DNA of 63,429 nt, filler included. It is 5 parts of 5 records of this genome, joined end to end, with 100 filler letters (N's around TTAATTAATTAA, not from the genome) between each part and the next. Parts side by side here need not be neighbours in the genome. Positions count along the whole stretch, not along the records: positions 38,409 to 49,830 come from DRR723986_16279; 4 more parts are not named here. One strand, written 5' to 3'. The notes beneath the pieces are model-generated. The model ran no database searches and was not told where the DNA came from. It worked only from the letters and a program-made list of their open reading frames with translations. A program made the translations under genes and the position numbers. Below are positions 7,387 to 49,930 of this stretch, one piece after another (the stretch's first letter is position 1; every line of letters starts with the position of its first letter).

Positions 7387-7486
7387 NNNNNNNNNNNNNN
7401 NNNNNNNNNNNNNNNNNNNNNNNNNNNNNNTTAATTAATTAANNNNNNNNNNNNNNNNNNNNNNNNNNNNNNNNNNNNNNNNNNNN
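7387..7486. other. Artificial contig linker
   Basis: N44-TTAATTAATTAA-N44 (stops in all frames). Confidence 0.99.
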
Positions 7487-7804: not shown

Positions 7805-9124
7805 CTATGCAGCTTGCCGAAGCTGGCCTGCGATCCTCAGCGCATTCGCTTCAATGAGGCTGGCCGCCTGTTCGACATATCCCGTGGTGCAGCCCGGTTG
7901 GGCCGCGACGGCGTTTGTCACGGCGACGCGGCGGGCGACCATTGCGTCCACCAATTCCTGGACACGTTTGCGGACATCGGCCGGTCGGTAACCGACGGCT
8001 TCGGAAATCGCATCCCAGTGGCGCGCGGCGACATCACCGGGCTTGCGCTTCCTGCCGGCAATGTTCTGCGCGAAATATTGCACGATCCGGGGCCAGGGCA
8101 GAACGGTCGAAACATCATAGAGCGGCGCGAGACGTGGCTCTGACCCGATCGGTAGCAACAGGGAATAGTTTTTTGCGTGGGCGTCCGTGTTGGCAACGAG
8201 AATGTTGAAGATGAGCTGGTCGAGCAGGGCCAGTGCATCTGCAGGCGGAAGGTTCTGTCCGGTCCTGAGCAGGGTTTTAATATCCGGGCCGGCAAGTGTG
8301 CCGCGCTCGTATTTCCGTCCAGGCGGCACACCGTTCGCCTGCGCGAAGTCTTCCTGGTGAACGCGTTGCAAGGTGCCGCGCCGGTTGATCCGCCGGTCAT
8401 ATCGCAGGACACAGATGGCGTTGCGAGTTCTGGCGGGCAGGACGGCGGCTTCGGCCGCAGGGATCCCGATCGCCCCGGCAAGGGTCAGGCAATAGGTCTC
8501 GTTTTCCACAATGCCAGGCAGGATCGGATTGTCGGGTTTCAGGATGATGGTTGAGGGCGCTCCATTGCGCGGAATCGCCAGAACGTCGCCTTCCTTTGGC
8601 AGCCGCAGGACGGCTGCGCCGGTTTGATCGAGAACCGCCAGGGCCGATTTCTTCTGGCCGCCGGCCAGTGATAGGCGGACACCTTCTTCGCCGACCAGGA
8701 GCGGGCGTTCCCCGAGGTCTTCGAAATGGCGTTCCAGGGCGGCCTCGGGATCCTTGATCTTGTAGAACTCCGTGAGCGGCGTATAGGCCCAGGCCGCCCG
8801 TTCGGACGGGACGCTGAACGAAAGCGCGCCCGCCGTATCCCCGCCGATCTCACAGAGAATGGCCGGCGTGTCTGCGCGGTCGAGCCCCAGAGAGCGGGTC
8901 AGGATCGTGAGCTGTTCTTCTTCTGGAAGAAGGTTGGCGAGCCATGGAGAGATGATTTCGGACCAATAGGCTTTCTTCCCGAGGGGCAAGGTCAGCGAGA
9001 TCGGGAAAGCACCTTCGGTGGCGAGCCAGTTGCTGGTATAGGCAAAGCCGAGTGCGCCGTCATCGCCGACGGTAATGTCGCCGATGTGCAGGGCGTCAAA
9101 CCAGACCGGGACAGCATTGGTCAC
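7805..9124 (-). CDS. hipA: HipA family kinase toxin
   Basis: N-terminal Couple_hipA region (FPISLTLP...WLANLLPE), SLAGGQKK, ILKP, RYDR, HQEDFAQ, NTDAHAKNYSL, LAPLYD. Confidence 0.95.
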   Translation of the reverse strand: MTNAVPVWFDALHIGDITVGDDGALGFAYTSNWLATEGAFPISLTLPLGKKAYWSEIISPWLANLLPEEEQLTILTRSLGLDRADTPAILCEIGGDTAGALSFSVPSERAAWAYTPLTEFYKIKDPEAALERHFEDLGERPLLVGEEGVRLSLAGGQKKSALAVLDQTGAAVLRLPKEGDVLAIPRNGAPSTIILKPDNPILPGIVENETYCLTLAGAIGIPAAEAAVLPARTRNAICVLRYDRRINRRGTLQRVHQEDFAQANGVPPGRKYERGTLAGPDIKTLLRTGQNLPPADALALLDQLIFNILVANTDAHAKNYSLLLPIGSEPRLAPLYDVSTVLPWPRIVQYFAQNIAGRKRKPGDVAARHWDAISEAVGYRPADVRKRVQELVDAMVARRVAVTNAVAAQPGCTTGYVEQAASLIEANALRIAGQLRQAA

Positions 9125-9637: not shown

Positions 9638-9800
9638 CTAAGTATGACGATTCCCGGGATGTCGCCCCATCCGTGCCCGGCTCACCCGGTCGAGATGCGT
9701 GGTGATCTGAGCGATCGCACTCGCGAGATCGGTTTTGACCGTAGTTTCAGAGACAGAGAGTTGATCGGCAATTTGGCGATAGGTCAGACGAGGCGCGGGA
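9638..9800 (-). pseudogene. Remnant of a sigma-70 region 4 / LuxR-type HTH
   Basis: LTYRQIADQLSVSETTVKTDLASAI with no credible N-terminal domain. Confidence 0.45.
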
Positions 9801-9941
9801 CTTATACGATCTCGTAGTGAGCATTCAGCACAATCTGAAGACGATGAATATCTAGCCTCACTTGTGGCTGTTGCAGTGGCTTGGGGAAGGGGCGTTTTTA
9901 AAAATTTCAATATTTATTGGCTTTAGACCTACTATTGGCGT

Positions 9942-9979
9942 ATTTTTCAATATTTTAGATTGCGGGTTGTTTGAAAAAT
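9942..9979 (+). promoter_or_regulatory. Inverted repeat in abiE promoter (candidate AbiEi operator)
   Basis: ATTTTTCAA-N20-TTGAAAAAT 16 nt upstream of abiEi; AbiEi proteins autorepress through promoter inverted repeats. Confidence 0.4.
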
Positions 9980-9995
9980 TTGTATTTTAAGGATC

Positions 9996-10838
9996 ATGAG
10001 CCAACAAAGAAGTGAAAAATTAAAATCCCTTCTCAACGAGGTGCCTCCAGGCTTCCTGGTCGATGCTTCATGGCTTGTCGGCCGGAAAATCGATCGTAAG
10101 TCGATCCTGAACTATGAGCGGCGCGGCTGGCTCGAAAAGGTAACGCGTGGCCTCTACAGGCGACCGTTTGGGTCGTCTGAAGCTGACAGCGCAGGACAGA
10201 ACTGGAAGGTCACGGTTCTATCGATGCAGCGGCTCATGAACTACGATGTTCATGTGGGTGGCAAGACTGCGCTCAATACGCATGGCTTTGTCCACTACCT
10301 GTCATTTGGAGCAGACGAACCAATATATTTATACGGCAAGCCTCCAGCGTGGTTGAAACGCTTGCCAGATGCGGACCGTTACGTGACCCGTACTCTTAAC
10401 CTGTTTGGGGACGGAACAATCGGCGTCGAGAATTCGGTCACATCGCTTGGCGATTCGGGCAACCATCTCACCCTCAGTCCCTGGCGATGGAAATTGACTG
10501 TCTCATCACCTGAGCGCGCCATATTGGAACTTCTGGACGAACTACCAGACCATGAAAGTTTTCACATCGCCGACATGGCGTTCGAGAGCCTGAGCGGTTT
10601 ACGTCCGGCAAAGATGCAGGATCTTCTTGAAGCTTGCCGAAGCATCAAGGTCAAGCGCCTTTTTTTCATGTTTGCCGACCGGCATAATCACGCTTGGCGA
10701 AAATATCTGGACCTGAAAAAGGTCAACCTGGGCTCAGGTCCTCGAGCGCTGGTCGAAGGTGGAAAATTTCACCCCGCATATAAGATCTCGGTTCCTGCGG
10801 AGTATCTGCCAGGGCAGGGGGACGATGATGGCGCGTGA
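9996..10838 (+). CDS. abiEi: Type IV toxin-antitoxin antitoxin AbiEi
   Basis: wHTH N-terminus (GWLEKVTRGLYRR), HVGGKTAL, SSPERAILELL, LLEACRSIKVKRLF, LGSGPR. Confidence 0.9.
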   Translation: MSQQRSEKLKSLLNEVPPGFLVDASWLVGRKIDRKSILNYERRGWLEKVTRGLYRRPFGSSEADSAGQNWKVTVLSMQRLMNYDVHVGGKTALNTHGFVHYLSFGADEPIYLYGKPPAWLKRLPDADRYVTRTLNLFGDGTIGVENSVTSLGDSGNHLTLSPWRWKLTVSSPERAILELLDELPDHESFHIADMAFESLSGLRPAKMQDLLEACRSIKVKRLFFMFADRHNHAWRKYLDLKKVNLGSGPRALVEGGKFHPAYKISVPAEYLPGQGDDDGA

Positions 10839-11742
10839 GCGGTATACCGAACAGGTGCGATTGCTTGTCAGTCTGCTGCCAATTGTTTCGCAAGAAACAG
10901 ACTTTGCCTTGAAGGGTGGGACAGCAATCAATCTCTTCTATCGGAACCTACCCCGCCTGTCGGTGGACATCGACCTCACTTATGTTCCGGTCAAGGAACG
11001 AGCGGAATCCCTCGCCGACATCAATGCCGCGATGGACCGAATTGCAACAGCAATAAACTTGCTTCCTGGAGTGACGGGTAGGCGCATAGCTGGCGGTGGG
11101 CGTGGTGACACGCGGGTCGAGGCCGTGGCTGGCAATTTGGGCGTAAAAATCGAGACCTCTCCAGTTGCGCGCGGAACGGTACTGGCTCCAGAAACCAGGC
11201 GCGTTTCTCCCGCGGTGGAAAGCCAGTTCCGATTTGCCGAAATGCAGGTCGTTTCTTTTGAAGACCTCTATGGCGGCAAATTTCATGCAGCCCTTGATCG
11301 TCAGCATCCTCGAGACCTTTATGATGTGAAGCTGCTCTACGAAAACGAGGGCATCACTGACGATCTCTTTCGTGTTTTCCTTGTCTATGTTGCGTGTTCC
11401 GCTCGACCGCCACATGAGCTGATCAACCCGAATCCGCAAGCGCTCCGAGACCTTTTCGATAAGGAATTTGCTGGGATGACGGTCGAGCCGGTGACAGTTA
11501 AAGAGCTTGAAGATGTCCGCACTCGGTTTTTCGCAGACATCCAGGCCCGCTTGACCGGGCCTAGCGCGGCTTTTCTCAGATCGCTTCAGGCAGGGGCGCC
11601 CGATTTCACACTCATTGATTTGCCAGAAGCGGTCAATCTACCAGCAATACTTTGGAAGTTGCGCAATCTTGAAAGGCTCATTGCAGAGAATCCGAAAAAG
11701 CACAAAGAGCAGTCTGAAGCGCTTGAGGCGCTACTTTTCTAA
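10825..11742 (+). CDS. abiEii: Type IV TA toxin AbiEii (nucleotidyltransferase)
   Basis: FALKGGTAINLF..LPRLSVDIDL, GGKFHAALDRQHPRDLYD; overlaps abiEi. Confidence 0.93.
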   Translation: MMARERYTEQVRLLVSLLPIVSQETDFALKGGTAINLFYRNLPRLSVDIDLTYVPVKERAESLADINAAMDRIATAINLLPGVTGRRIAGGGRGDTRVEAVAGNLGVKIETSPVARGTVLAPETRRVSPAVESQFRFAEMQVVSFEDLYGGKFHAALDRQHPRDLYDVKLLYENEGITDDLFRVFLVYVACSARPPHELINPNPQALRDLFDKEFAGMTVEPVTVKELEDVRTRFFADIQARLTGPSAAFLRSLQAGAPDFTLIDLPEAVNLPAILWKLRNLERLIAENPKKHKEQSEALEALLF

Positions 11743-11884
11743 TCATAGGAAAGTTGTCAGCCCGTAGTGATTTCCGGAAGCCTTGCTCATGCCAAGCAGC
11801 GCAGGTCCTGGCACGCCAAACAACCGTGGGCTCAGATTTGCGGGGAAAACATATGGTACCGAGTAGCGTCCAAAATCGTGATAT

Positions 11885-12180
11885 CGGTCGGTCCCATGCG
11901 AGGGTGGACAGATTTTGATTTTAAATCAGGGTGTTGCGTGTGGGCGTGTGCAGTCAGTTCCAAGGATATGAAAATTAATCCCAATAAAACAATGGTGTAA
12001 ATTTCTACAATTGTACCCAAAAGCTGAGTTTTTCGGGAAATGAAAGACAAAAAACCAAATAAAAACAAAGATTTAAACTACCGTTTCTCCGTGGCTCCCA
12101 TGATGGATCGGAATAAAAAGATATAAGTATCAAATAGTTATGGGGCTCCGTGTGCGCTCCGTGTGCGGTTACAAAATTTC
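11885..12180 (+). repeat. dusA-att-like repeat, copy A (two cores plus GTGTGC arm repeats)
   Basis: Core 1 reads ISVGPMRGWTD; core 2 is a mini-ORF 12040-12126 MKDKKPNKNKDLNYRFSVAPMMDRNKKI*; both resemble the DusA N-terminus RFSVAPMMDWTD; homologous to 21053-21345. Confidence 0.8.
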
Positions 12181-12693
12181 AATGTTGTGGATAAAGATCT
12201 GTAGACCGAATAAGTTTCAGCTCGAGAGTCACCGGATTTTTCCTTGGCTCTCTGCGCCAATTTTAGCGGGCTGAGGGAGGGATTGGGCGGGATGCAGCAG
12301 GGGCGTGACCTCGCAAGGAGTGATTGTGCTTCCTGTATCACTGGCTCAAAGCCGAGCAGGCTTCCGGGTGCCCTACGATCGTCAGTGCCCAAATGCCGCA
12401 CATTAGATTAGGCGAGAGCCTCTCATCAACAGCGACCGGCGTGGTCCTATTCAGTTCTATGTCCTTTTTTGAAGTTGCTCCGGTCGACCCGGACGAACTC
12501 GACTATGCTGTTATCGAGTGCTGTGCGATGGCGGCCATTTGGTTTGACGAAGTTTTCGACCCGTTTCGGAATATGACGGAGTTCAAGCTGGGGCAGGTGC
12601 CCCACCCAATCAGGTGTGGAACCCGTCTCAGGACCGCGTATGCATATGGCATCGAGCTGTCCGAGGGCTCAAAAATGAGTTGACCGACGAGGG

Positions 12694-29673: not shown

Positions 29674-29773
29674 NNNNNNNNNNNNNNNNNNNNNNNNNNN
29701 NNNNNNNNNNNNNNNNNTTAATTAATTAANNNNNNNNNNNNNNNNNNNNNNNNNNNNNNNNNNNNNNNNNNNN
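29674..29773. other. Artificial contig linker
   Basis: N44-TTAATTAATTAA-N44. Confidence 0.99.
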
Positions 29774-35549: not shown

Positions 35550-36824
35550 TCAGCGAATGCGCGCGATTTCTTCGGCCGCGTGGTCCAGCGCCGCGGCGGT
35601 GTCGGTCTCCTCGCCGCTGGCGAGGCTGGAAATCGCGGTTTCGAGGATCTCGGAGATCCGCGGCCAGTTGTCGCCGAAATCCATGCCTTCGGCCGTGGCC
35701 AGCGCGTCGGCGGCGGCGGAGTGCATCCCGCCCCAGCGCGCGTTGACTTCTTCGTCACGCAGGTTGGAGAAATGCACCGCGACCACTTCGGAGCCGTTTT
35801 CATCCAGCAATACCTCGCGCTCCAGCGCCGGGTCGGTCAGCCAGCCAAGGAACTCCGCCGCGGCATCCTTGTTGTCCGCGCCTTCGGTCACCGCGAAGAT
35901 CCAGGTGTTGGTGAAGGTGGTCTTGTCCGCCCCGCCCACCGAGGGCAGCGAGGTAAAGCCGATCTGGTCGGCGGTCAGCTTGGATTGCTCGGGATCGGAG
36001 AGCTGCGAGCGCACCCACCACCAGACCGGCAGCATGGCGGAATTGCCCTGCTTGAAGCTGTTGACCGCATCCTGTTCGACGAAGGTAGCCGAGCCTGCGG
36101 GGGCGATCTTTTCCTCGGTCAGCAGGCTGACATATTGTTCGGTCGCGGCAATGCCTGCCTCGGAATTGAAGGCAGGGTCGCCGTTTTCATCAAACAGGTC
36201 GCCGCCATGGCCCCAGAGCAGGTTGATCCAGACCATTAGGTTCTGGCCGTTCAGTTTGCCATAGGGCAGCGCGATGCCGGCGGCCTCGGTTTTGTCCTGA
36301 ACCGCCTTCGCGGCTGTAACAACGTCGTCCCAAGTCGACGGTGCTTCGACGCCAGCCTGCTCTAGCAGGTCCTTGCGATAAAACAGGAGTTGCACATGGC
36401 CGCGCACCGGCAAGCCGACCAGCTCACCGTTCAACATGCCGTGGCGCAGGTGCGCCGGGGGGAAATCGTCTAGGTCCGTGCCTTGCGCCTCGATTTCGTC
36501 GCCGATGGGCTGTACGAGCATCTGCAAAGACGGCACCCACTGGTCCATGATCGAAACGATATCGTAATCGCCGCCCGCCACCATCTCGGTGGTCAGCGCT
36601 TCCTTCATGTTGGGGAAGGGCACATAGTCATAGACCACGTCGATGCCGGTGGCCTCTTCGAACGCGGCGAGCCGCGCTTCATGCGCTTCGAACTGGCTGG
36701 ATTTTACCGCCAGCACATGCACGGTTTCGCCGTCGTAGGGCTTGCCCTCAGTCGCTTCCCAGGCGCTGACGCTGGATCCGAATATTGCCCCCGCAATGGC
36801 AAGGGCGCTGGTGAAACGTCTCAT
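35550..36824 (-). CDS. ABC transporter substrate-binding protein (family 1)
   Basis: Signal peptide, FEEATGIDV, LFYRKDLL, APSTWDD. Confidence 0.93.
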   Translation of the reverse strand: MRRFTSALAIAGAIFGSSVSAWEATEGKPYDGETVHVLAVKSSQFEAHEARLAAFEEATGIDVVYDYVPFPNMKEALTTEMVAGGDYDIVSIMDQWVPSLQMLVQPIGDEIEAQGTDLDDFPPAHLRHGMLNGELVGLPVRGHVQLLFYRKDLLEQAGVEAPSTWDDVVTAAKAVQDKTEAAGIALPYGKLNGQNLMVWINLLWGHGGDLFDENGDPAFNSEAGIAATEQYVSLLTEEKIAPAGSATFVEQDAVNSFKQGNSAMLPVWWWVRSQLSDPEQSKLTADQIGFTSLPSVGGADKTTFTNTWIFAVTEGADNKDAAAEFLGWLTDPALEREVLLDENGSEVVAVHFSNLRDEEVNARWGGMHSAAADALATAEGMDFGDNWPRISEILETAISSLASGEETDTAAALDHAAEEIARIR

Positions 36825-36875
36825 GTGATCCTCCCTCTGAATCTGCCTGCAAGCTAGAGAAGGAGGGATGTTCGG

Positions 36876-36891
36876 TCAATAAGATTATTGA
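36876..36891. promoter_or_regulatory. Palindrome, candidate GntR operator
   Basis: TCAATAA-GA-TTATTGA between the divergent binding-protein and gntR genes. Confidence 0.55.
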
Positions 36892-36963
36892 TAATTTTAT
36901 CGTTGAGATGGCGACCGGCATTGTTTAAGCCTTCCGGAGAGATAGTGACCGAGGCCGGAGCAC

Positions 36964-37620
36964 ATGCCGAACGCACTCCAGAAAGACCTGGAAGATGACA
37001 TCATTTTCGGAGTTTACCCACCAGGCACGCGGATCACCGAGGATACGGTGATGGAAGCATACGACGCCAAGCGCCACGCGGTACGGCACGCCTTTGCCGA
37101 GCTGGAAAACCAAGGATTGCTGGTGCATCGCCCGCGGCGCGGCGTCGAGGTGGTGGATTTCACCCCCGACGAGGTGGACGCGCTCTATGATCTGCGGATC
37201 GTGCTGGAAACCGCCGCCGCGCGCCGCACCCCCCTGCCCGCACCGGTCGAGACCACCGAGTCGCTGACGGTGCTGGCCGATCGCCACGCCGAGGCAGTGG
37301 AACGGGGCGCATTCCGCGAGGTCTACGAGCTGAACCAGCAGTTTCACGAGCTGCAATACAGTTGCTGCCCGAATCCCCGGTTGACCAAGCTTATCGCCCA
37401 GCACGCCCGCATGGCCCAGCCGATCCGGGTGGTGAAATACGACGACATGGAGCACATGGCGATCGTTGTCGCGCAGCATCGCGACATCGTCGCCGCATTG
37501 CGCGGCACCTCGACCGAGGCCTACGAGGCCAGCGTGCGCGCGCACCTTCCGGCCTCGGCCGAAGCCTACCGCGCCCTTTACGAACGCCGCTTTGCTGGAC
37601 GCCGCGCCGCCCAGGCCTGA
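36964..37620 (+). CDS. GntR/FadR (FCD) regulator
   Basis: YPPGTRITE...AVRHAF..LENQGLL..RPRRG wHTH; NQQFH, QHRDIV. Confidence 0.92.
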   Translation: MPNALQKDLEDDIIFGVYPPGTRITEDTVMEAYDAKRHAVRHAFAELENQGLLVHRPRRGVEVVDFTPDEVDALYDLRIVLETAAARRTPLPAPVETTESLTVLADRHAEAVERGAFREVYELNQQFHELQYSCCPNPRLTKLIAQHARMAQPIRVVKYDDMEHMAIVVAQHRDIVAALRGTSTEAYEASVRAHLPASAEAYRALYERRFAGRRAAQA

Positions 37621-37737
37621 TCCTTCGGAACTGCGGACGGCGGCTTCGCTTGGCCTTCGCCCTGTCGATCAAGTGGTGCGGATGACCTCTGGCAACGGAC
37701 GATCAGTCCCCTGAAAGCCTCGCTTTGACAGAGGTTT

Positions 37738-38308
37738 TCACGCGTCCCAGTCCACGTTGAATGTCGTTACCAGATCCTTGACCTGCGCCGAACTCAGGGC
37801 ACGGGGGTTCAGGCCGCGTGTCAACAAGGCCAGACGCGCGGTGTCTTCGAGTTCCTCGATGGCATTGCAGGCGGCCTCGACATCCTTTCCGGCCACCACC
37901 GGCCCGTGATTGGCCAGCATCACCGCCGAACGTTTGCCAGCTAGGCTGCGCACCGCCTCGCCCATCGCCGGGTCACCGGGCAGGAAAAAGGGCAAGAGCT
38001 TCACCTTTCCCAGCTTCATGATCCCGTATGGGGTAAGCGGCGGCAGGAAGTTGTCCTCGTCCGCGTCCCGCATCATCGACAGCGCGACCGAATGGCATGA
38101 ATGCAGATGCACCACCGAGCCCGCTGTGCTGCGGGTGTCGTAGAAGGCGGAATGCAGGGGCATCTCCTTGGTAGGCTTGTCACCGTCGATGTGCCTGCCC
38201 TCGGCATCAAAGCGGCTGAGGCGGCCGGGATCGAGTCCACCGAAACTGGTGCCGGTGGGCGAGACAAGCAGCCCGCCATCCTCGGTCCGGGCCGAGATGT
38301 TGCCGGTG
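37738..38308 (-). CDS. otnC: Class II aldolase, 3-oxo-tetronate 4-phosphate decarboxylase-like (5' truncated)
   Basis: TGNISAR, SPTGTSFG, KPTKEMPLH, VVHLHS, LANHGPVV, EELEDTA. Confidence 0.85.
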
Positions 38309-38408
38309 NNNNNNNNNNNNNNNNNNNNNNNNNNNNNNNNNNNNNNNNNNNNTTAATTAATTAANNNNNNNNNNNNNNNNNNNNNNNNNNNNNNNNNNNN
38401 NNNNNNNN
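38309..38408. other. Artificial contig linker
   Basis: N44-TTAATTAATTAA-N44. Confidence 0.99.
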
Positions 38409-39076
38409 CGCAGTTTCCACACAGCCTCGGCCCTTTCCCACCGCTTCAGCTATCCGCTGCGTACTCCGGATTTGGTCACCACGACCCAAGCTCTACTCAA
38501 GATTGTAAGCCGCCAGGCCTTCGACATCTTCGCCAAGTTCGACAGGCCATACGGGTGACGTGCCTGAGATGGAAGTGCTGGACTATCCTCGCGCGATGAG
38601 CGCACGGCAAGTGCCACAGCGGATCAGAGAGTTTATGGCTACCGAAGCTGCTGCCTGAGAGGCTTCTGGAAAAGGCGCTTCCTCCCCGAGATTGGAAACT
38701 TGGCAGACCTCCATTATGCGCAGTTCAAGGCTGTGGTCCGCTCAATCCAACCTGAGGCGGCTTTACGGCTTAAACAGGGAGTATACGCTGCGCGAAGTGA
38801 ATTCCAGGTCTACGCCCCGCTTGACGTTGTTCCCTCTTCCGGAACGGCATTCCGGGCAAGATTCCGAAGACAGCCCCGTTTCCCTTTCCGAATTGTTTTC
38901 AAACAACGCACCTAAATCATCTGACCACGGAGTTTGCCGGGTCGTGCAAGAGTACCGAATACGAGACGTAGCACAAAAGGCGATGTAGTCGGCTGCAAGA
39001 TACTTCTGCTGGTGAGGTTGATGCTGGCGAGAAGACCACTGGGCGTCAAATGCACCAACTTCGTTGTGAATGCATG

Positions 39077-39118
39077 AACCAAACGGGTTATGCTCAATCC
39101 TTGAAAATGGATTAGAGT
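39077..39118 (+). promoter_or_regulatory. Shared promoter box, copy 1 (upstream of the LuxR-hydrolase gene)
   Basis: AACCAAACGGGTTATG-N18-ATTAGAGT. Confidence 0.6.
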
Positions 39119-39161
39119 ACCAAGCCAAGGCGAATACCCAACCGATCTCGAGGAAGCCGGA

Positions 39162-40646
39162 ATGCAAACAGTTCAGGAAATCGAAGCGAGGGCCATTGCG
39201 GCCCAAGCGATCCGCACCGTTCCTGATTTGCATCCAGAAGTTCTTCACAGCTTCCTTGTCGATATCGGGAAGCGTGAGCCGGTGCCGATTGCCCGGTTTA
39301 GGGGCGTTCCGATCTGGCGCTATACCGCCGATCTGACCACACTCAGCTCCTTGCCGGAGGCTGAACTCGCGACCGTGGCCGGTAACGATCACCTGGTGTT
39401 CCAGGAGGATCATATCTGCGTCTGCCTTCGCTTTGACCCGCAATCGCTTATGGTTGTTGTGCCCATGCGCATCGTGGGTGCCATCATGGAAGACCGGGGA
39501 TTTACCCCGGCCAGTGCGGCGGAAATGCGCTTGGCGGCGCAGCTTTTGTCCGGGGTATCGCTCAACGATGCCGCTACCGGGGATAACGTGGCTTATGAGA
39601 CAAAGCGCAACCAGTTCAAATCCCTTGCCGCAAAGATGGGCCTGTCTCGGCAGCAGGACGTGGTGCGGATATTGTTACAGGATCTGCTGCTGATCGTCGT
39701 ACCGCGGAGTACGGCGGAACCAAACCATGACCTGCTGTACGGCTACAAAGACCGATTTCTGCCTGACCGAGTGCGCCTTTCGATTCTGTCTCAGAGGGAT
39801 GGGCCAGATGCCCGGATCCTCGACTACGGTCCGGTGTCAGGTCGACCGGTCCTGTTGCTGCACCCGATGATCCTGCCAGACATAACCGACGCAAATATCA
39901 ACGCGGCAGAAGCGGAGGGGATCAGGGTGATCCTGCCCTTGCGCCCCGGCCTGCTGGACCCGAGCGCCGCGTCCCAGTCGCACGAAGCCCATATGGATCA
40001 GGCCTTCGCCTGTTTGGTGACAGCTTGGACCCAGATGTGTGGTACCTCTGCGGCATTGCTGGCACTTGTGTCGAGCGGTGCCCTGGCGACCCGCTTTGCC
40101 CGATCCTTTCCTGATCGGGTTTCGTCGGTGACTTATGCAGCGACCTGCTTTTCTTCGGGGCATTACCGGCCAAGCCCAATCTATTTCGGATCCAGCGTTG
40201 CTGAGCTTGCGCTGCGCAACGAATGGATCCTCACTAAGACCATGGCCACTCTGCGACGGCAGTTTTTCCCGCGGGACAAGTTCGAGCCTACGATCCGCCG
40301 CATCTTTTCCGGCAGCGCGCCCGACACCCGGATCCTCGAGAGGGAATTTGACGTACCGAACCACGGCGACCGGATCATGGCGGTGGTACTCCAATCCCCC
40401 GAGAGCTTGAAGCAAGACTATTTCAACCAGGTTCATTTCGACTGGAAACAGGTCGCAGACGTTAGCGCGCCGGTGGAATTCGTGCACGGGTTGGAGGATT
40501 CCATTCACGCTGTTTGCGATATGGAGCGACTGCGCACCCTGGCGGGGAATCGCCCAATGCGGAGTGTTCCGGGGGTGGGTCACCTGTTTCAATATGATCA
40601 GCTCGACCAGTTGATTGCCGATGTTGCGGCGGCGACTCCACGCTAA
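39162..40646 (+). CDS. LuxR-type HTH / alpha-beta hydrolase fusion regulator
   Basis: SAAEMRLAAQLLSGVSLNDAA..DNVAYETKRNQFKSLAAKMGLSRQQDVVR HTH; DYGPVSGRPVLLLH, LRPG, ALVSSG, VHGLED, GVGHL hydrolase fold. Confidence 0.85.
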   Translation: MQTVQEIEARAIAAQAIRTVPDLHPEVLHSFLVDIGKREPVPIARFRGVPIWRYTADLTTLSSLPEAELATVAGNDHLVFQEDHICVCLRFDPQSLMVVVPMRIVGAIMEDRGFTPASAAEMRLAAQLLSGVSLNDAATGDNVAYETKRNQFKSLAAKMGLSRQQDVVRILLQDLLLIVVPRSTAEPNHDLLYGYKDRFLPDRVRLSILSQRDGPDARILDYGPVSGRPVLLLHPMILPDITDANINAAEAEGIRVILPLRPGLLDPSAASQSHEAHMDQAFACLVTAWTQMCGTSAALLALVSSGALATRFARSFPDRVSSVTYAATCFSSGHYRPSPIYFGSSVAELALRNEWILTKTMATLRRQFFPRDKFEPTIRRIFSGSAPDTRILEREFDVPNHGDRIMAVVLQSPESLKQDYFNQVHFDWKQVADVSAPVEFVHGLEDSIHAVCDMERLRTLAGNRPMRSVPGVGHLFQYDQLDQLIADVAAATPR

Positions 40647-40677
40647 CGGTTCCCTGCATCCCTTCCCTTCCCGTTTG

Positions 40678-40719
40678 ACCCAAACGGGTCATGTGGCGAC
40701 GCGGCCCGGCCCCTAGCTT
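40678..40719 (+). promoter_or_regulatory. Shared promoter box, copy 2
   Basis: ACCCAAACGGGTCATG-N18-CCTAGCTT, 31 nt before the 40751 ATG. Confidence 0.75.
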
Positions 40720-40750
40720 TGCTTGGTCAAGACAACGAAGGAGAACAGCT

Positions 40751-41968
40751 ATGTCAAAGGTGACTTATCATCTTTCTCTTCTGTCCAAGGAAACGAACCA
40801 GCCCATTCGCGGCTTTACCGCCATAGTCCATGCCTGGGGCACGGGGGGGGGCGTTTCGGTGGGCGACATACTCTTTGCCGAAAGCCCTCTTCATGCGGGG
40901 ACCGATGCCCCGCTGGCAATCTCGCTAGATCAGGTTTCGAGCGGCGAAAACGGGGTGGCCAAGCTGACACTGAGAGGACCCATCTCGGGCGACCCGGGCG
41001 ATCCCGTCGCCTATGAAACCTATGTCGTCCTGCGCCGCCGTGCCTCGAGCGACGTGGTTCTTACCTTCCAAGACTGCAAAGAACTAAGCGCCGCTCAGCG
41101 CCCGCCCCTTGCGGCCACGCAAGAAGCTTTCGATCCGCACGAAGCCGCGCTTTCCGAAGACCTTTTTACCGCCAAAGAAGCCGTGGATGCTGGCAACAAG
41201 TCGCAGGAAGCCAAGTTCGCAGCCACGGCGACGGTACTTGGGCTGCGCCCCGAGCACGTGGCGCCCGACTGGTATGGCGTGTCCGATCTGACCTGTCACA
41301 CGATCTATGCGCGGATTGCCGATCTTGGACTGCCGCACACGGGCGACAAGACGGTCCAATTGCACTATCCCGGCACTCCGAACGGAGTCACCGTGCCCTA
41401 CCCCCTGTCGCGTAGTCTCCAATCGCCGACAGTGCTGAATGCGCGGGCGCGAACCGGCCGGATCTGGATGATCCTGCGGGACGCTGTATCTGGGGTGGTC
41501 GAGCAGAAAATCTGGCTCGACGTGGCGCGAAGCCAGACGCAGGAAGTCGTACTGATTTCCGGCAACGTGCCGCAGGTGCCAAATACGAAAGAGGCCTGGT
41601 TGCCAGTACCGCGCCCGCTGCGTTTTTTATTCCGGGGGCAATGGTACGAAGGCAACGATCCTGTGATTGAGCACTACAACTCGATCTACAACGAGGCGGC
41701 GGACAAGGCCTCTCACCTCACATCGGTCATCCCCGCTGATAGCCAGAAGGCAGCGGAGAAGGCCATCAAGGATCGCAATCCAGTGGCAAATAATATCCGG
41801 GCTATCCGGTTCCGGGATGTGCGCGAACAGGTAGAGTTCACGATTTCTGCGCACCCAGCCAACCCACGCCATTGGAGCGCATTCCGTTGGGCCCCCAATA
41901 CGCCCATGCATGGGACGTGGATCCAGACCCGGCTGTTCGTGGACGACGTGTTCGTCACTTGGGACTGA
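40751..41968 (+). CDS. Hypothetical protein (405 aa)
   Basis: Long ORF, GAAGGAG RBS, followed by terminator; no family recognised. Confidence 0.8.
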   Translation: MSKVTYHLSLLSKETNQPIRGFTAIVHAWGTGGGVSVGDILFAESPLHAGTDAPLAISLDQVSSGENGVAKLTLRGPISGDPGDPVAYETYVVLRRRASSDVVLTFQDCKELSAAQRPPLAATQEAFDPHEAALSEDLFTAKEAVDAGNKSQEAKFAATATVLGLRPEHVAPDWYGVSDLTCHTIYARIADLGLPHTGDKTVQLHYPGTPNGVTVPYPLSRSLQSPTVLNARARTGRIWMILRDAVSGVVEQKIWLDVARSQTQEVVLISGNVPQVPNTKEAWLPVPRPLRFLFRGQWYEGNDPVIEHYNSIYNEAADKASHLTSVIPADSQKAAEKAIKDRNPVANNIRAIRFRDVREQVEFTISAHPANPRHWSAFRWAPNTPMHGTWIQTRLFVDDVFVTWD

Positions 41969-42009
41969 ACCAGTCAGCCAGTCAGCAACGACAGCCCATT
42001 GAAAAACAA

Positions 42010-42041
42010 AAAAACGACCAGCGTCCCTGCTGGTCGTTTTT
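42010..42041. terminator. Rho-independent terminator (bidirectional type)
   Basis: AAAAACGACCAGC-GTCCCT-GCTGGTCGTTTTT. Confidence 0.85.
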
Positions 42042-42081
42042 ACGCCGCTTGACTCCGCAGCACTGCGAACTTCGATCTCTA

Positions 42082-42123
42082 ACCCATATGGGTCATGCTG
42101 GTTCGCCTCCTTGTGCCTAGCTT
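42082..42123 (+). promoter_or_regulatory. Shared promoter box, copy 3
   Basis: ACCCATATGGGTCATG-N18-CCTAGCTT. Confidence 0.75.
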
Positions 42124-42202
42124 CGAACCAGTCGCAGCAATACCCCAACTTCTCCCACCCGCTGCGTCCCCTGGAAAAGCCAGCCACTATGAGGATCCCG
42201 AC

Positions 42203-42523
42203 ATGACCCGATTCCACATCAACTGCCTCAAGGCCATTGCCCTCTGCCTGCCCATGGCTACTGCAACCGCCGGCTACGCGCAGAGCTGCCCCAACGGTCA
42301 GACCTTTGATCAAAACACCGGCCACTGCGGCGATACCTTCGGCAGCGGCACTACTTTCGTACAGGAAAGCGGCTCGGGCTGGTGGGTTCAGCCCGCTACG
42401 GATGATATTTCTGAACAGATGCGCAATCAGAGTGGCAACAGTTCCGGCTCGAGTTGTACCGGATGGTTCTGCGGCACCAGCGGATCGTCCACTTCCGGCA
42501 ACGGGTCTTCGATCAGCCAGTAG
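42203..42523 (+). CDS. Small secreted Cys/Gly/Ser-rich protein
   Basis: GAGG RBS; signal peptide ending GYA; CPNGQTFDQNTGHC, GSGWW, CTGWFC, Ser/Gly-rich tail. Confidence 0.75.
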   Translation: MTRFHINCLKAIALCLPMATATAGYAQSCPNGQTFDQNTGHCGDTFGSGTTFVQESGSGWWVQPATDDISEQMRNQSGNSSGSSCTGWFCGTSGSSTSGNGSSISQ

Positions 42524-42871
42524 TCTCTTCAGCCGGGCTGCCTGTTCCGATCTCCCCGCTTGACCTCAGTTATGATCTCCGGGTGATCAACAGGGCCGAC
42601 GCCACGCGATTCCAATGCCATTGTTCGCGCCTTCTGGGCGGCCCGGCTGGTTCTTTAAATCTGATCTGGGCCAAAGATCACAGCTTGTGACAAGAGTGAG
42701 CGTTGCACGCACACCTTTCAGATCGCGAAAAGACTAGTGTCACGGCAGATGTGTTGTGGTTGTCATTCCGGCTTAACCAGATGTTTTCGGGATCCGCTCT
42801 GGATCTTATGGTTGATCTGAAATGCGCCAAGGAAGCACTGCCGGGCCTCAGTCAGCGCTGGCGGAGCTTCG

Positions 42872-43840
42872 TCAACCGTCCTTTGTCTTCGCGGGGGGCG
42901 TGCCATGGGAGTGGAAGGTTTCTATGGTCTTCAACCCCCATGCCTGACCCTTCTTGCGATCTGCCTCTGTCCAGATAACCGGTTCCCAATCGGGTGCCAG
43001 GATCAGTCGGGCGCCCGCATTTGCCAGTTCCACCCGATTGCCCGCCGGTTCCCATACATAAAGGAAAAACGTGCCCTGGATCGCGTGTTTGTGCGGCCCT
43101 GTCTCGATGTGCACTCCGTTCTCAAGGAAGATATCAGCCGCCCGCAGAATGTCCTCACGCTGATCCGTGGCATAGGTAACGTGATGCAGCCGCCCTTGCA
43201 TGCCGCCATGTTCTTCGGTGCAGGCAAGATCATAAGTCTTGTTGTTCACCGTGAACCAGCATCCGCCGATCCGCCCGTTGTCGAGCTGGATCATCTCGGT
43301 CACCCGCGCACCAAGACAGGTTTCCATGAAGCGCCGAAATTCCCTGACATCCTCGCTTAGCAGGTTGAGATGGTCGAGTCGCCGCGGACAGGCGCCGGTT
43401 GCATGAAATTTCGACGCAACGTTCTTCAGCGCCGGGGTCTCTTCAGACCCCGGATCAAAGCGGCGTGTCTGCCAGTACAGTTCGAAAACATGGCCAAACG
43501 GATCGGCAAAACGAAAGGAGCGCCCGTGCCCCAGATCGCCATCGTCCCAACCCAGCACCTCAAAACCAGAAGCCTCGATCGCCGCAACACGCCGCGTCAG
43601 CGCCGCCTCGGAATCCGCCCGATAGGCAATGTGCCCGACCCCGGTCCGATGGTGGCGGGTCAGTTTCAAACTATGAAATTCGTAGTCATCCCATGCGCGC
43701 AGGTAGGCGCTGCGCTCATCCGTACCGGACACAGTCAGCCCGTAGACCCGCGTGAAAAAATCCAGGTTTTCTTCGTATCGGTCCGTGTAGATTTCTACAT
43801 GGCCCAGATGGGCGACGTCATGAAACCCGTCAGTCGACAT
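42872..43840 (-). CDS. VOC-family extradiol dioxygenase (catechol 2,3-dioxygenase-like)
   Basis: HLGHVE, YLRAWDD, RLDHLN, RLHHV, GPHKHAI, FLYVWEPAGNRVE. Confidence 0.9.
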   Translation of the reverse strand: MSTDGFHDVAHLGHVEIYTDRYEENLDFFTRVYGLTVSGTDERSAYLRAWDDYEFHSLKLTRHHRTGVGHIAYRADSEAALTRRVAAIEASGFEVLGWDDGDLGHGRSFRFADPFGHVFELYWQTRRFDPGSEETPALKNVASKFHATGACPRRLDHLNLLSEDVREFRRFMETCLGARVTEMIQLDNGRIGGCWFTVNNKTYDLACTEEHGGMQGRLHHVTYATDQREDILRAADIFLENGVHIETGPHKHAIQGTFFLYVWEPAGNRVELANAGARLILAPDWEPVIWTEADRKKGQAWGLKTIETFHSHGTPPAKTKDG

Positions 43841-44879
43841 AAACCATCCCGTCCATCAGCTTACGCGCCGTGCGCAGAATTGCGGCGGAGGTGACGTCAC
43901 CATTATCCTCAACCTGCGCCAGCACCGTGACAACGCCGGTCGGATGCTCCACAGCCAGCGCCTTTTCAGTCCCACTCGGCACCGTGGCCATCTCAGCGGC
44001 AGGCGATCCGGGCAACAAACAGGCCGTTGCCACACTGACCGCCCCCAAGACCCCAATCGAGGCATGGCAGCGATGCGGGATGAAGGTCCGTGTCGCAATC
44101 GCACCGCCAGAACGGGCTGCGCTGACCATGGTCATCTTCGGCACCGTCTTGTCGGCCACATCGCCAAGACTCATCAATGGCCCGCAGGCCAATCGGATGC
44201 TTTCGAGCCGCGCCTTCAATTGCGTGTCCGCATCCAGCGTCTCGCGGCTTTCTTGCCCAGTGATCCCCATATCGGCCGCGCGCAGCACAACGACCGGCAT
44301 TCCGTTGTCGATCATCGTGACTTCGACACCCTCGACGACATCCATCACGTTTCCCGTTGGCAGCAGAGCCCCGCAGGTCGACCCTGCTGTCCCGACAAAC
44401 TCCAACGGTACCGGCGCGGCTGTCCCCGGCACCCCGTCTATGGCAGCATCCCCGGCATAGATTGGCCTGCCATCCGGTGTTTCCACTGTGGCGATAGCGG
44501 TTTGACCGGTGTTTTCCATGAAGATCGTGACACGCGTCTGCCCGTCCTGCCCCTGCACCAACCCGCGCTCGATGGCGAAGGGGCCAACACCCGCAAGGAT
44601 GTTGCCGCAATTCTGTCCGTCAGAGACGACCGGTTGATCTACGACCACCTGAAGAAAGAGATAGTCGACATCGACCCCCGCCCGGTCGGATCGTTTCACG
44701 ACGGCCACCTTGGACGTTAGCGGATCTGCACCGCCAATCCCGTCGATCTGGCGCGGATCGGGGCTGCCCATTACTCGCAAAAGGAAGTTGTCCCGATCTT
44801 CTGGCAGGTTGTCTTCCAGCAGATACACCCCCTTGGATGTACCGCCACGCATCCACATGGCCCGCACACCGTCAGCCAT
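43830..44879 (-). CDS. galD: 4-oxalomesaconate tautomerase (PrpF fold)
   Basis: WMRGGTSKG, GSPDPRQIDG, TSKVA, QNCGN, RCHASIG, EHPTG, LRTARKLMDG. Confidence 0.93.
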   Translation of the reverse strand: MADGVRAMWMRGGTSKGVYLLEDNLPEDRDNFLLRVMGSPDPRQIDGIGGADPLTSKVAVVKRSDRAGVDVDYLFLQVVVDQPVVSDGQNCGNILAGVGPFAIERGLVQGQDGQTRVTIFMENTGQTAIATVETPDGRPIYAGDAAIDGVPGTAAPVPLEFVGTAGSTCGALLPTGNVMDVVEGVEVTMIDNGMPVVVLRAADMGITGQESRETLDADTQLKARLESIRLACGPLMSLGDVADKTVPKMTMVSAARSGGAIATRTFIPHRCHASIGVLGAVSVATACLLPGSPAAEMATVPSGTEKALAVEHPTGVVTVLAQVEDNGDVTSAAILRTARKLMDGMVYVD

Positions 44880-44926
44880 GTCGCGCTCGCAAAACCTTCG
44901 TAAGAACCGAGGCCAATCCATAAGAT

Positions 44927-45604
44927 TTAGACATAGCGCAAACCCTTTTCGGCAAGCCTGCCGCGCATGTCGTACATGTCCAGCCCCAATTCACCAGCGG
45001 CAAGGCGTTGGCGCTTCATGTCTTCGTTGGAAATCCTCGAAAGAGCCTCTTCCAGCACGGTGTCCGCATCGGCGCGCTTCACAACGCAGACCCCGTCATC
45101 GTCGGCCAACACGACGTCCCCCGGGTCTACGACAGCGCCTGCACAGACGACCGGCACATTGACCGAGCCGAGCGTCTCTTTCACCGTACCCTGCGCCCCG
45201 ATGGCCTTGGACCACACCGGGAAGCCCATCTGCTCTAGCTCCGCCACATCGCGCACGCCCGCGTCAATGATCAGTCCCCGGCATCCACGCGTCTGCGCCG
45301 ACGTGGCGAGCAGATCCCCAAAGTAGCCCGCGTCCGAAGGCGAGGTGGTCGCCAGCACCAGGATGTCACCCGGTTTGATTTGTTCGATGGCGACATGAAC
45401 CATCCAGTTATCGCAGGGAGGCGCGAGGATCGTGACGGCGGATCCCGCGATGGATGCCCGTGGATAGATCGGGCGCATGTAGCTTGCCAACAGCCCCGAG
45501 CGCCCCTGCGCCTCGTGCACCGTCGCAACCCCGCATTTCGCCAGCGCGTCGATGGTCGCCGAAGCTGCGCGCGCGATGTTCTGGACGACGACGCCTCCCA
45601 TCAC
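44927..45604 (-). CDS. galC: 4-carboxy-4-hydroxy-2-oxoadipate aldolase (RraA-like, LigK/GalC)
   Basis: [48 protein letters not shown]. Confidence 0.93.
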
Positions 45605-46332
45605 AATTCATCCACTGTGCGCGGGAAGACCGACTCGAACCCTTCGGCATATTTGGCTGCCCGTCCGCCTGCCTGCCCGCCCGAGTTGCGCCGAAAATGG
45701 TTGCCCCGGTTCTCGGCAACGTTGCTGTAGAAGTCCCACAGATGGTGCTGGCCTTCCATGCATTCGATCGCCGCACGCTTCTGATCCCAAACCTCTGTAA
45801 TGTCGAGGAACGTGTCCGGTTTCCAGCCCATCTGTTCGGTCTGGTGCGGCTCGAAGAGGTAAAGTTGCGGGGCGCCGAGAACCTTTTCCCCGGGATTGTG
45901 ACCCCAGGCCTGCGCGATCATCCGCACCTCCAGCGCGACCTCGGTCGCATGCATGTGGTCAGTGTTGTAGGGGTCATACTTGGAATGGCTCAGCATGAAC
46001 CGGGGCTGCACTGCACGAACCAGATCCACAAGCTTCATCTTGGCATCATGGTCTACAACAAGCGGGTAGTCGCCCAGATCGAAAAAACGGATATCGTGGA
46101 CATTCAAGGCCTTGGCAGCGTTCTCGGCCTCTTTATGGCGGATGGCCTTCACCTCGTCGGGGCTCTTGCCTTCCTTCCACAACCGCGCGCTTTCGCCCCG
46201 CTCTCCGTAAGACAGGCATGCAACCGTTACCTCGTAACCCATCTTTTGGTGCAATGCGATTGCGCCGCCGCAACGCCACACGAAATCGGCTGCATGCGCC
46301 GATATGACCAACGCCGTTTTCTGTTCCACCAT
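45601..46332 (-). CDS. galB: 4-oxalomesaconate hydratase (PIG-L family)
   Basis: [38 protein letters not shown]; real start MVEQK inside a longer computed ORF. Confidence 0.93.
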
Positions 46333-46437
46333 GTGACCTCCGCGCGGATTTTCTTGGGGGAAACGGTGCTTCACCAAAATCGAAAAGACCACTTCAAAGG
46401 CTGGAAATAGATATTCAAAAAAGCTATTGCCTGCGAT

Positions 46438-47661
46438 ATGAAAGCCAGTTCTCTCAATCTTCGCCATCTCCGTGCGCTCAAGGCCGTACACCACACCGGC
46501 AGCATTACCAAGGCGGCGGATATGGTGTTTCTGTCTCAACCTGCGATCACCCAAGGCATCGCCAAACTGGAGATCGCATTCAGGTCGAAGCTTTTTGTCC
46601 GGGGCCGGTCTGGCATGACGCCCACACCGGCAGGCGAGGCCGTTGCGCGCCGCGTGGAACGGGCGTTGGCGATACTTGCAGACGGGTGCCGACAAGCCGC
46701 ACAACGGGCCAAGGCCCGGTGCGATGGCGCGTTTGATCTGTCCGTAACTGCCAACCAATTGCGGGCGTTGGATGCAATGGCCCGACACGGCAGCTTTTCC
46801 GGCGCCGCCCGTGATCTTCAGGTGGCTCAGCCCTCGCTTCATCGGATCGCGAGAGATCTCGAACACCTCGCCGGGTTTCCGCTTTATGAGAAAACCAGTG
46901 CGGGCATTGCGTTGACGCCGGGCGCGAAAATCCTCAATCGCGCGGCGAAGCTGACCTTTGCTGAATTGAGGCAGGCAATCGACGAGGTTCGCGGGCATGG
47001 GGCCCGGCTTGCCACCGATTTGATTGTTGGCAGCCTGCCGCTTCCCCGCGCCCAACTTCTGCCATCCGCCATCGCACGCCTTGCCGCCGATGCACCCGAT
47101 ACCGTGATCCGCGTGATCGACGGCCCCTACGCAGACCTGCTCGAAGGTTTGCGGGAAGGGGATCTCGACATGATTGTCGGGGCTTTGCGAGCACCGGCGC
47201 CCGACGAAGTGGATCAGATCCCGCTTTTTACAGACCGATTGGGAATTTACTGTGGCCCCAGCCATCCCTTGGCGGGGAAATCCGATCTCCGGCTCTCGGA
47301 TCTTTGCGGGTTTGGTTGGGTTGTTCCGAGGCACCCCACCCCGACCCGTGCAATTTTCGATGCCGTTTGCGAAGCGGCAGGGCTGTCGGCAGATGTGGCG
47401 GTCGTGGAAACAAGTTCCATGATCCTTGTTCGGGGATTGCTGGGTGTGTCGGATCGCCTGACCATGCTGTCACAACACCAGGCAGCGACCGAGATGCGCG
47501 CGGGGCATCTGTACCTGCTTGACCTGCGCTTCGAGGATCTGGGCCGCCCCATTGGCATATCGGTGCGCCAGGATTGGTCCCCAACACCGACACAAACGCT
47601 GTTTATCAGCCATCTGAAGGACACCGCACGGGCCTATGAAGCTGCGGTTGGGTCCGTGTGA
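46438..47661 (+). CDS. galR: LysR regulator with two HTH domains (GalR-type)
   Basis: GSITKAA..LSQPAIT and GSFSGAA..VAQPSLHR HTHs plus substrate domain; divergent from galB. Confidence 0.88.
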   Translation: MKASSLNLRHLRALKAVHHTGSITKAADMVFLSQPAITQGIAKLEIAFRSKLFVRGRSGMTPTPAGEAVARRVERALAILADGCRQAAQRAKARCDGAFDLSVTANQLRALDAMARHGSFSGAARDLQVAQPSLHRIARDLEHLAGFPLYEKTSAGIALTPGAKILNRAAKLTFAELRQAIDEVRGHGARLATDLIVGSLPLPRAQLLPSAIARLAADAPDTVIRVIDGPYADLLEGLREGDLDMIVGALRAPAPDEVDQIPLFTDRLGIYCGPSHPLAGKSDLRLSDLCGFGWVVPRHPTPTRAIFDAVCEAAGLSADVAVVETSSMILVRGLLGVSDRLTMLSQHQAATEMRAGHLYLLDLRFEDLGRPIGISVRQDWSPTPTQTLFISHLKDTARAYEAAVGSV

Positions 47662-49830: not shown

Positions 49831-49930
49831 NNNNNNNNNNNNNNNNNNNNNNNNNNNNNNNNNNNNNNNNNNNNTTAATTAATTAANNNNNNNNNNNNNN
49901 NNNNNNNNNNNNNNNNNNNNNNNNNNNNNN
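49831..49930. other. Artificial contig linker
   Basis: N44-TTAATTAATTAA-N44. Confidence 0.99.

Follow-up and report, generated by a model that had tools for sequence, protein, structure and literature searches.

Which protein acts on a palindromic box that recurs in front of three neighboring genes, and in what way might it act there? The question is raised by a locus at positions 39077 to 42523 of a 63,429-nucleotide (nt) stretch of DNA, hereafter referred to as the window (the whole stretch that was analyzed). At this locus, a gene encoding a LuxR-type helix-turn-helix (HTH) protein with a hydrolase-like domain, P0001, is followed by two further genes, P0002 and P0003, and a preliminary description made from the sequence alone had grouped the three into a candidate regulon. 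Comparison of sequences, profiles, and fold models across genomes leads us to a predicted LuxR-type one-component switch in which the pairing of regulator and operator is well supported.

Three boxes with a shared promoter-like arrangement

Three co-directional open reading frames (ORFs) of 494, 405, and 106 amino acids were confirmed on the plus strand: the regulator gene P0001 at 39162..40646 (ORF, profiles, and fold model), target gene 2, P0002, at 40751..41968 (ORF and coding-type GC pattern), and target gene 3, P0003, at 42203..42523 (ORF). All three have a ribosome-binding site of the AGGAG or GAGGA type, identified by eye, 6-8 nt 5' of the ATG. The same element precedes all three genes, at exactly the positions first reported for a box, 18 nt, and a TAGnnT hexamer. 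At the first site, W1, AACCAAACGGGTTATG at 39077-39092 is followed after 18 nt by ATTAGAGT at 39111-39118. Site W2 consists of ACCCAAACGGGTCATG at 40678-40693 and, again after 18 nt, CCTAGCTT at 40712-40719, and site W3 of ACCCATATGGGTCATG at 42082-42097 with CCTAGCTT at the same distance (42116-42123). The -10-like hexamer, which had been said to lie at an identical distance in all three sites, does so: TAGAGT at 39113..39118 begins 20 nt after the W1 16-mer, and TAGCTT occupies the shared position after W2 (40714..40719) and after W3 (42118..42123). Transcription would start near 39125, 40726, and 42130, respectively.

With four additional bases on the left (from 39073, 40674, and 42078), the box becomes a 20-bp near-palindrome. 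W1 (39073..39092, core AACCAAACGGGT at 39077-39088) lies 5' of the regulator gene and has two mismatches to the 16-mer consensus; W2 (40674..40693, core ACCCAAACGGGT at 40678-40689) lies 28 nt past the regulator stop codon and has none; and W3 (42078..42097), also without mismatches, contains a perfect 12-bp palindrome, ACCCATATGGGT, at 42082-42093. All are given on the plus strand. A scan of the 63-kb window with the 16-mer, allowing up to three mismatches, returned eight matches, compared with a mean of 1.34 and a maximum of five in 100 dinucleotide shuffles. Of the eight, three are the boxes, and two more are W1 and W3 read on the reverse strand; the other three, at three mismatches (39987, 43798, and 51143), were taken as chance. 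Since W1 and W3 also read on the reverse strand, the box is a palindrome, and the ACCC-N4-GGGT core recognized earlier extends to a palindrome of 16-20 bp, TnACCCAWWYGGGTnA. The 18-nt spacers of W2 and W3 have no mutual similarity, conservation being limited to box and hexamer, so the boxes do not stem from a recent duplication. The terminator placed between genes 2 and 3 in the preliminary description was recovered by a hairpin scan as a terminator-like hairpin of 13 pairs at 42010..42041, with A and T runs at its flanks; it was listed on the minus strand, and the plus strand also has a T run after the stem.

A second dyad, seen by eye at 40670-40688 (8-bp arms, 3-nt loop), overlaps W2 just past the regulator stop codon; none was seen at W1 or W3. 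It could be a hairpin in the regulator mRNA or a by-product of the box.

P0001 joins a central HTH to a hydrolase fold

Three parts were distinguished in P0001: an N-terminal alpha+beta domain (amino acids 1-111; AlphaFold model, lower confidence), a GerE/LuxR-type HTH (amino acids about 112-180, nt 39495-39701 on the plus strand; profile), and an alpha/beta-hydrolase fold (amino acids 205-494, nt 39774-40643, also plus strand; fold comparison). Pfam and NCBIfam gave no significant family for P0001, the C-terminal esterase hints having E-values of 0.0012 and weaker, far under the cut-offs, and the HTH segment alone had no match among PDB sequences. A profile of 19 homologous HTH segments, P0001 included, matched FixJ (2e-11), EL222 (3e-10), GerE (2e-9), and NarL (6.5e-9), and more weakly VqmA, RhlR, CviR, SdiA, and TraR; the PDB matches include the PqsE-RhlR fusion 7r3e. 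Eight of the 19 segments, that of P0001 not among them, contain Pfam GerE (PF00196). In the AlphaFold model of P0001 (12 sequences; predicted local distance difference test [pLDDT] score 78.6), residues 119-183 form four helices with pLDDT around 90. Foldseek matched this model to alpha/beta hydrolases (E 4e-12, probability 1.0), and VIA-align gave a Z score of 21.6 to 9wlv over residues 205-492 (276 aligned, root-mean-square deviation 3.4), with hundreds of hydrolases above Z 8. The family profile matched PDB hydrolases at 2e-16. Eight more distant full-length relatives all have a Pfam hydrolase domain (Abhydrolase_1, Abhydrolase_6, or Hydrolase_4), and two have GerE, which is found together with Abhydrolase_1. 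The autoinducer-binding domain PF03472 had no match in P0001 at E≤1 in Pfam or NCBIfam, and the N-terminal domain obtained scores of 0.78 or less in an atlas search, without an assignment.

Given the HTH profiles, the relatives with both GerE and hydrolase domains, and the fold matches, the fusion of HTH and hydrolase is, at the level of profile and model, real. It had been proposed from the sequence and is borne out, though not by a Pfam match in P0001 alone. What is unusual is that the HTH lies in the center and that there is an additional N-terminal domain.

Close relatives of P0001 are few and form 15 clusters. Homologues from Oricola indica and an Oricola metagenome-assembled genome (MAG) are 58-59% identical to it, and those from Granulosicoccaceae MAGs 37-40%. 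Searching a library of 1.84 billion proteins with a profile of 12 relatives yielded 7268 proteins at E≤1e-3 and 678 at E≤1e-10. At E≤1e-30 there are 162 clusters (50% identity), mostly of 480-560 amino acids, whose members align to P0001 from about residue 100 to the end. The family is thus sizeable and not confined to this locus.

The box accompanies the regulator gene across genomes

Checking for the box near homologous fusion regulators had been suggested at the outset, and of 17 alphaproteobacterial loci, 13 indeed have the core palindrome beside the regulator gene or the operon to which it seems to belong (6.3 kb away in one). Eight of the 17 loci were fetched after the box rule had been set, and six of these eight have the core. 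A profile search in 151 genomes belonging to the same family had earlier identified closer homologues in G138, G042, G106 (two copies), G148, and G085, whose surroundings were searched for the core ACCCAATTGGGT, either perfect or altered at one end base; the eight later loci came from 400 genomes belonging to the family and 401 belonging to the class.

The box often lies both 5' of the regulator and just 3' of it, before the next gene. The Oricola MAG (G001) has two boxes. One, with GCTATCCT likewise 18 nt away, is 122 nt 5' of where the tblastn match to the regulator begins, and the other is 20 nt past the regulator stop codon. The core is found 30 nt 5' of the regulator's longest ORF in G138 and at the start of that ORF in G042. 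In G148, it stands before a two-gene string ending in the regulator, with a second core 73 nt past the stop codon, and in G085 before a three-gene string ending in the regulator. Five of the eight later loci (both copies in G719, and G706, G798, and G788) have an exact core NCCCAWWTGGGN (0 mismatches) no more than about 120 nt from the regulator gene or the apparent operon; G788 has two sites arranged as in G148. A sixth, G768 C55, has a one-mismatch core 27 nt past the regulator stop codon.

How often such proximity would arise by chance was estimated with the exact 10-mer CCCAATTGGG, of which five whole genomes contain only 13, 5, 4, 2, and 2 copies. Every one of them has a copy (G148 has two) at the regulator or its apparent operon; the chance of this is 2e-4 to 4e-3 per genome, and the product is about 9e-16. 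The regulator is the only constant neighbor of the site across the 13 loci, which ties the box to the regulator family; that the box belongs to this family is therefore supported by the sequence comparisons. The pairing recurs in many related bacteria from marine and soil habitats. Counts of the 16-mer across whole genomes, with 1-2 mismatches allowed, were rejected as evidence because they are near the number roughly estimated for random bases (about 0.6 per genome at one mismatch); a reversed-pattern control gave lower numbers than these counts, which were still not used as support.

Three observations concern individual loci. In G106 (locus L070), three transposase-like ORFs (by eye) at 9750-12606 lie between the regulator and the box-led targets, which suggests that an insertion split a formerly compact cluster. 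On O. indica contig C33 (L013), a near-perfect 20-bp palindrome at about 501525 is followed ~230 nt on by a large, repetitive adhesin-like gene (by eye). Just 5' of the gammaproteobacterial regulator homologue, at about 5745-5870 of L007 and L008, there is a long 6-base tandem repeat ending at a terminator-like hairpin. A search for further palindromes close to the regulators of the gammaproteobacteria and of O. indica revealed no shared site, most of the output being an N run.

Operator consensus and promoter geometry

The consensus TnACCCAWWYGGGTnA was derived from 18 sites in eight genomes, aligned in the orientation of the downstream gene. CCA at positions 3-5 and GG at positions 9-10 are present in 18/18 sites, and G11 and T12 in 17/18. 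T(-1) and its symmetric partner A(14) occur in 16/18 and 17/18 sites, respectively. Beyond the consensus, a TG is better conserved on the gene side of the operator (promoter-proximal T15 in 13/18 sites, G16 in 15/18).

TAnnnT stands exactly 20 nt after the 16-mer in seven of the nine sites from the window and Oricola, and in 7/18 overall; in other lineages, AT-rich hexamers were seen by eye within a base or two of the expected position. If TAGnnT is the -10 element (-12 to -7), the center of the palindrome is near -42.5. Positions 14-19 (ATGnnn) then fall in the -35 slot with a 17-bp spacer. There the three window sites read ATGCTC, ATGTGG, and ATGCTG, each with 2-3 of six matches to TTGACA by eye, and no sigma-70 consensus promoter was found in 38600-43000 (1.4 expected). 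LuxR at the lux box (about -42.5) and CRP/FNR (-41.5) occupy the classical class II activator position. A center near -42.5 without a -35 consensus, as in class II activators and LuxR at the lux box, would favor activation over repression.

The hydrolase domain is probably not a classical serine hydrolase

The preliminary description had noted a degenerate nucleophile elbow with Asp and His retained. The ALVSSG motif, Asp446, and His474 are present in P0001, and VSS, D446, and H474 are invariant in 12/12 close relatives, in which an AATC(F/Y)SAG motif and the lid motif DYFNQVHF-W are also invariant or nearly so. What did not stand is the view of the elbow as a weakened Ser motif, since profile alignment puts Val303 at the canonical nucleophile position. 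In a 64-member alignment, distant members have GHSxG, and the column of their Ser corresponds to Val303 of P0001 (A-L-V-S-S); intermediate members read V/I-S-G at the elbow. Profile-to-PDB alignment likewise places the Ser of GGSWG of proline iminopeptidase on the Val303 column. P0001, with Val at the nucleophile column, thus does not have the Sm-x-Ser-x-Sm elbow of active serine hydrolases. The Asp446 column has D in 62/64 members, and the His474 column has H in 34/64 and Q in 23/64.

A Val at the nucleophile position, together with a strongly conserved lid and pocket, argues for a sensing rather than an enzymatic role. As far as these alignments indicate, the domain is strongly selected, probably not for classical serine hydrolysis. 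An analogy with RsbQ/KAI2-type receptors had been drawn. Those receptors need an intact triad, and Val at the nucleophile column weakens the comparison; likeness to a non-catalytic hydrolase-fold receptor is the stronger one. The family forms a natural series from GHSxG enzymes to members without the Ser or the His, and is useful for the question of how enzymes become sensors.

Genes downstream of the box differ between genomes

Both window targets proved to be orphans, as had been reported. For P0002, four clusters including its own were found among 5.8 billion entries; it has no Pfam/NCBIfam family, no relatives were found in the genome contigs, and no signal peptide was seen by eye. Its model is weak (pLDDT 63) and mostly beta, with only low-scoring beta-sandwich matches (best Z 6.0) and atlas scores of 0.80 or less. 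For P0003, only its own cluster was found. It agrees with the earlier account of a small, secreted-looking, Cys-rich protein: by eye, it has an N-terminal signal-peptide-like segment followed by four Cys, and it is Gly/Ser/Thr-rich, with a sub-threshold CBM_14 hint (E 0.0037).

Other genes follow the box elsewhere: three RTX calcium-binding proteins in G001, an autotransporter and small secreted-looking proteins in G138, and a BcsS-like protein in G148, with a similar one (by eye) in G106. P0003 has no similarity to the small secreted protein of G138. One protein of about 315-340 amino acids recurs. Its members share the motif DERCGLYFLAG and have no Pfam/NCBIfam family, and P0002 is not similar to them. 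This protein is encoded by the first gene after the box in G148, G085, G106, and G788 and is also present in G719 (C2), where its gene lies just 5' of the regulator and its own upstream region is beyond the fetched stretch. The five genes are at L079 5197-6141, L110 35-1030, L111 2631-3647, L069 (minus strand, after the box at 9119), and L070 (minus strand, after the box at 8000). In G148, G085, G788, and G719, the gene heads a string ending in the regulator; the encoded protein is a possible core partner of regulators in this subfamily.

On present sequence evidence, then, the two window targets are not conserved regulon members, and targets differ between genomes. The proposal of a new regulon comprising the regulator and two orphans stands as far as the three boxes are concerned and fails for the two targets as conserved members. 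The regulator stays while its neighbors change, which points to a pair of regulator and operator whose cargo can be exchanged and consists mainly of exported or surface proteins. The genes after the box suggest control of the cell surface and of interaction with hosts or particles.

A candidate class II activator and its alternatives

We consider the locus best explained, with a probability of about 0.62, by a one-component, autoregulated class II activator with a hydrolase-fold sensor that is probably non-catalytic. P0001 would bind as a dimer to TnACCCAWWYGGGTnA, centered about 42.5 bp 5' of the predicted starts. The promoter-proximal half-site would overlap the place of the missing -35, and P0001 would act there as a class II activator, like LuxR. 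It would switch on its own gene and, in this lineage, the 405-amino-acid orphan and the small secreted-looking protein, with the hydrolase domain serving as a ligand- or partner-sensing module and not as an enzyme. From these patterns we infer that P0001 binds DNA as a dimer, that it activates and does not repress, that transcription begins near the predicted positions, and that a ligand exists. A bolder version, which we put forward only tentatively, is a new receptor class in which a hydrolase fold that has lost or is losing catalysis binds an external small molecule, such as an ester or lactone of algal or other host origin, and acts directly through the fused HTH to remodel the surface and secretome (RTX proteins, autotransporters, and small secreted proteins).

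Several results weigh against the activator model. Four of the 17 alphaproteobacterial loci (the O. indica type, the second copy of G106, G347, and G768 C33, the last two among the eight later loci) have no nearby box; the site is 1.75 kb from the regulator gene in G085 and 6.3 kb from it at the first copy of G106, and the core is absent at 4/4 distinct gammaproteobacterial loci. Neither O. indica nor a near-identical metagenome contig has a box at its regulator gene. Autoregulation, one of the original claims, is accordingly predicted where the box is 5' of the regulator and is not universal in the family. Pfam does not detect GerE in P0001 itself. The fixed-distance TAnnnT is absent in 9/9 sites outside the window/Oricola group, and the -10 assignment relies on weak hexamers. 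A site over the -35 could equally serve repression. Finally, the close subfamily has invariant Ser304 and Ser305 and keeps Asp and His, and a nucleophile shifted by one residue could leave residual catalysis.

If the fusion protein were instead a repressor, it would bind the palindrome at the -35 of otherwise active promoters until a ligand displaced it, as happens with EsaR-type LuxR proteins. The overlap of the site with the -35 at alignment positions 14-19 fits this idea, and autoregulated repressors commonly sit by their own operators. Yet the three slots hold no -35-like hexamer, no consensus promoter accompanies them, and -42.5 is a classical position for class II activation, which makes repression unlikely in our view. 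We rate as less probable again that the hydrolase domain is active through a shifted Ser304 or Ser305, or through Cys329, with regulation tied to turnover as in KAI2/D14. The invariance of VSS, Asp446, His474, and AATC(F/Y)SAG in the close relatives and the GHSxG of distant members would suit an enzyme, but the profile alignment puts Val303 on the nucleophile column, the residue at -2 would be Leu/Met instead of a small one, and the Gln that replaces the catalytic His in 23/64 members indicates a family drifting away from catalysis.

The palindrome might also be the site of another factor, such as a classical LuxR-type receptor, the fusion gene being merely a frequent member of its regulon. 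Boxes do occur far from fusion genes, with 12 further exact sites in G138, and O. indica has boxes elsewhere and none at its regulator. Against this, the fusion gene alone is constant across 13 loci with otherwise differing genes, no other regulator gene was found in the window cluster, and GerE-type HTHs like that of the fusion protein typically bind inverted repeats of this size; we regard a different factor as quite improbable. That the boxes are non-regulatory repeats (mobile-element ends or recombination sites) or chance occurrences is hardly credible: the orphan status of the targets and the transposase-like ORFs (by eye) between regulator and box at one related locus would be in keeping with it, but only 16-20 bp are conserved between unrelated flanks, the sites have a fixed relation to -10-like hexamers and start codons, the probability of chance co-location with the regulator is near 1e-15, and the three genes resemble the remainder of their contig in composition.

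Relation to known regulators and receptors

As working models for P0001, LuxR/TraR with their boxes and single-chain regulators that combine a sensor with a GerE HTH come closest. P0001 shares with LuxR/TraR and their lux and tra boxes a GerE-type HTH and, by prediction, an inverted repeat of 18-20 bp near -42.5 in place of a -35, together with autoregulation and activation of adjacent genes. It differs from them in having no autoinducer-binding domain by Pfam, a central instead of a C-terminal HTH, another operator, and a large domain of alpha/beta-hydrolase fold. NarL/FixJ/GerE output domains are the best sequence matches of the HTH profile; unlike NarL and FixJ-type regulators, P0001 has no receiver domain, and no partner kinase gene was found in the cluster. 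The LOV-HTH protein EL222, the PAS-HTH protein VqmA, and PAS-LuxR regulators (PimM) likewise combine a sensing domain and a palindrome-binding GerE HTH in one polypeptide. In P0001, however, the sensor is hydrolase-like and C-terminal to the HTH, and there is an extra N-terminal domain.

Hydrolase folds are used for signaling by plant KAI2/D14 and GID1 and by Bacillus RsbQ, which act via partner proteins and have no DNA-binding fusion. KAI2, D14, and RsbQ keep an intact Ser-His-Asp triad, and GID1 is non-catalytic. The P0001 model matches a KAI2-like protein with Z 17.4, which is no better than its match to ordinary esterases. A further parallel is PqsE-RhlR of Pseudomonas aeruginosa, in which the hydrolase-fold protein PqsE boosts DNA binding of RhlR without catalysis; PqsE differs in being a separate protein with a metallo-beta-lactamase fold, and RhlR also binds an acyl-homoserine lactone. 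GID1, KAI2/D14, RsbQ, and PqsE-RhlR are functional analogies to P0001 and not relatives.

Few bacterial switches have been studied as thoroughly as LuxR-type regulators. Still, full-text searches of the literature outside subscription journals and supplements found neither an architecture with a central HTH and a C-terminal hydrolase-like domain nor the operator core described. Passages of PMC4338825 and PMC3230580 contain nothing on this architecture or operator. Within that scope, the system is undescribed, as had been supposed. The operator, the promoter geometry, and the pairing of regulator and operator are defined well enough for direct experimental design. If the proposed receptor role is true, P0001 would be a DNA-bound bacterial counterpart of plant GID1/KAI2-type receptors whose targets are swapped freely between lineages.

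Contig and gene layout

The window consists of several contigs strung together by N linkers, and the three-gene cluster sits on the contig at 38409-49830. The linkers (7387-7486, 29674-29773, 38309-38408, and 49831-49930) are paired 44-N runs around a 12-base all-frame stop linker. Gene neighborhoods across the linker points are thus artificial, and genes left of 38409 are not real neighbors of the cluster; a class II aldolase gene is truncated at 38308. An Rfam scan of 36000-46000 gave no match. An island origin of the three genes was considered and rejected because their GC content and codon-position GC equal those of other genes on the contig. On the same contig, the minus strand at 42872-47334 carries extradiol-dioxygenase-like, PrpF, RraA-like aldolase, and PIG-L genes, which look like an aromatic or organic-acid catabolic string; no box at up to two mismatches precedes it. 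DNA of the window is contained in algal, seawater, and plastic metagenomes.

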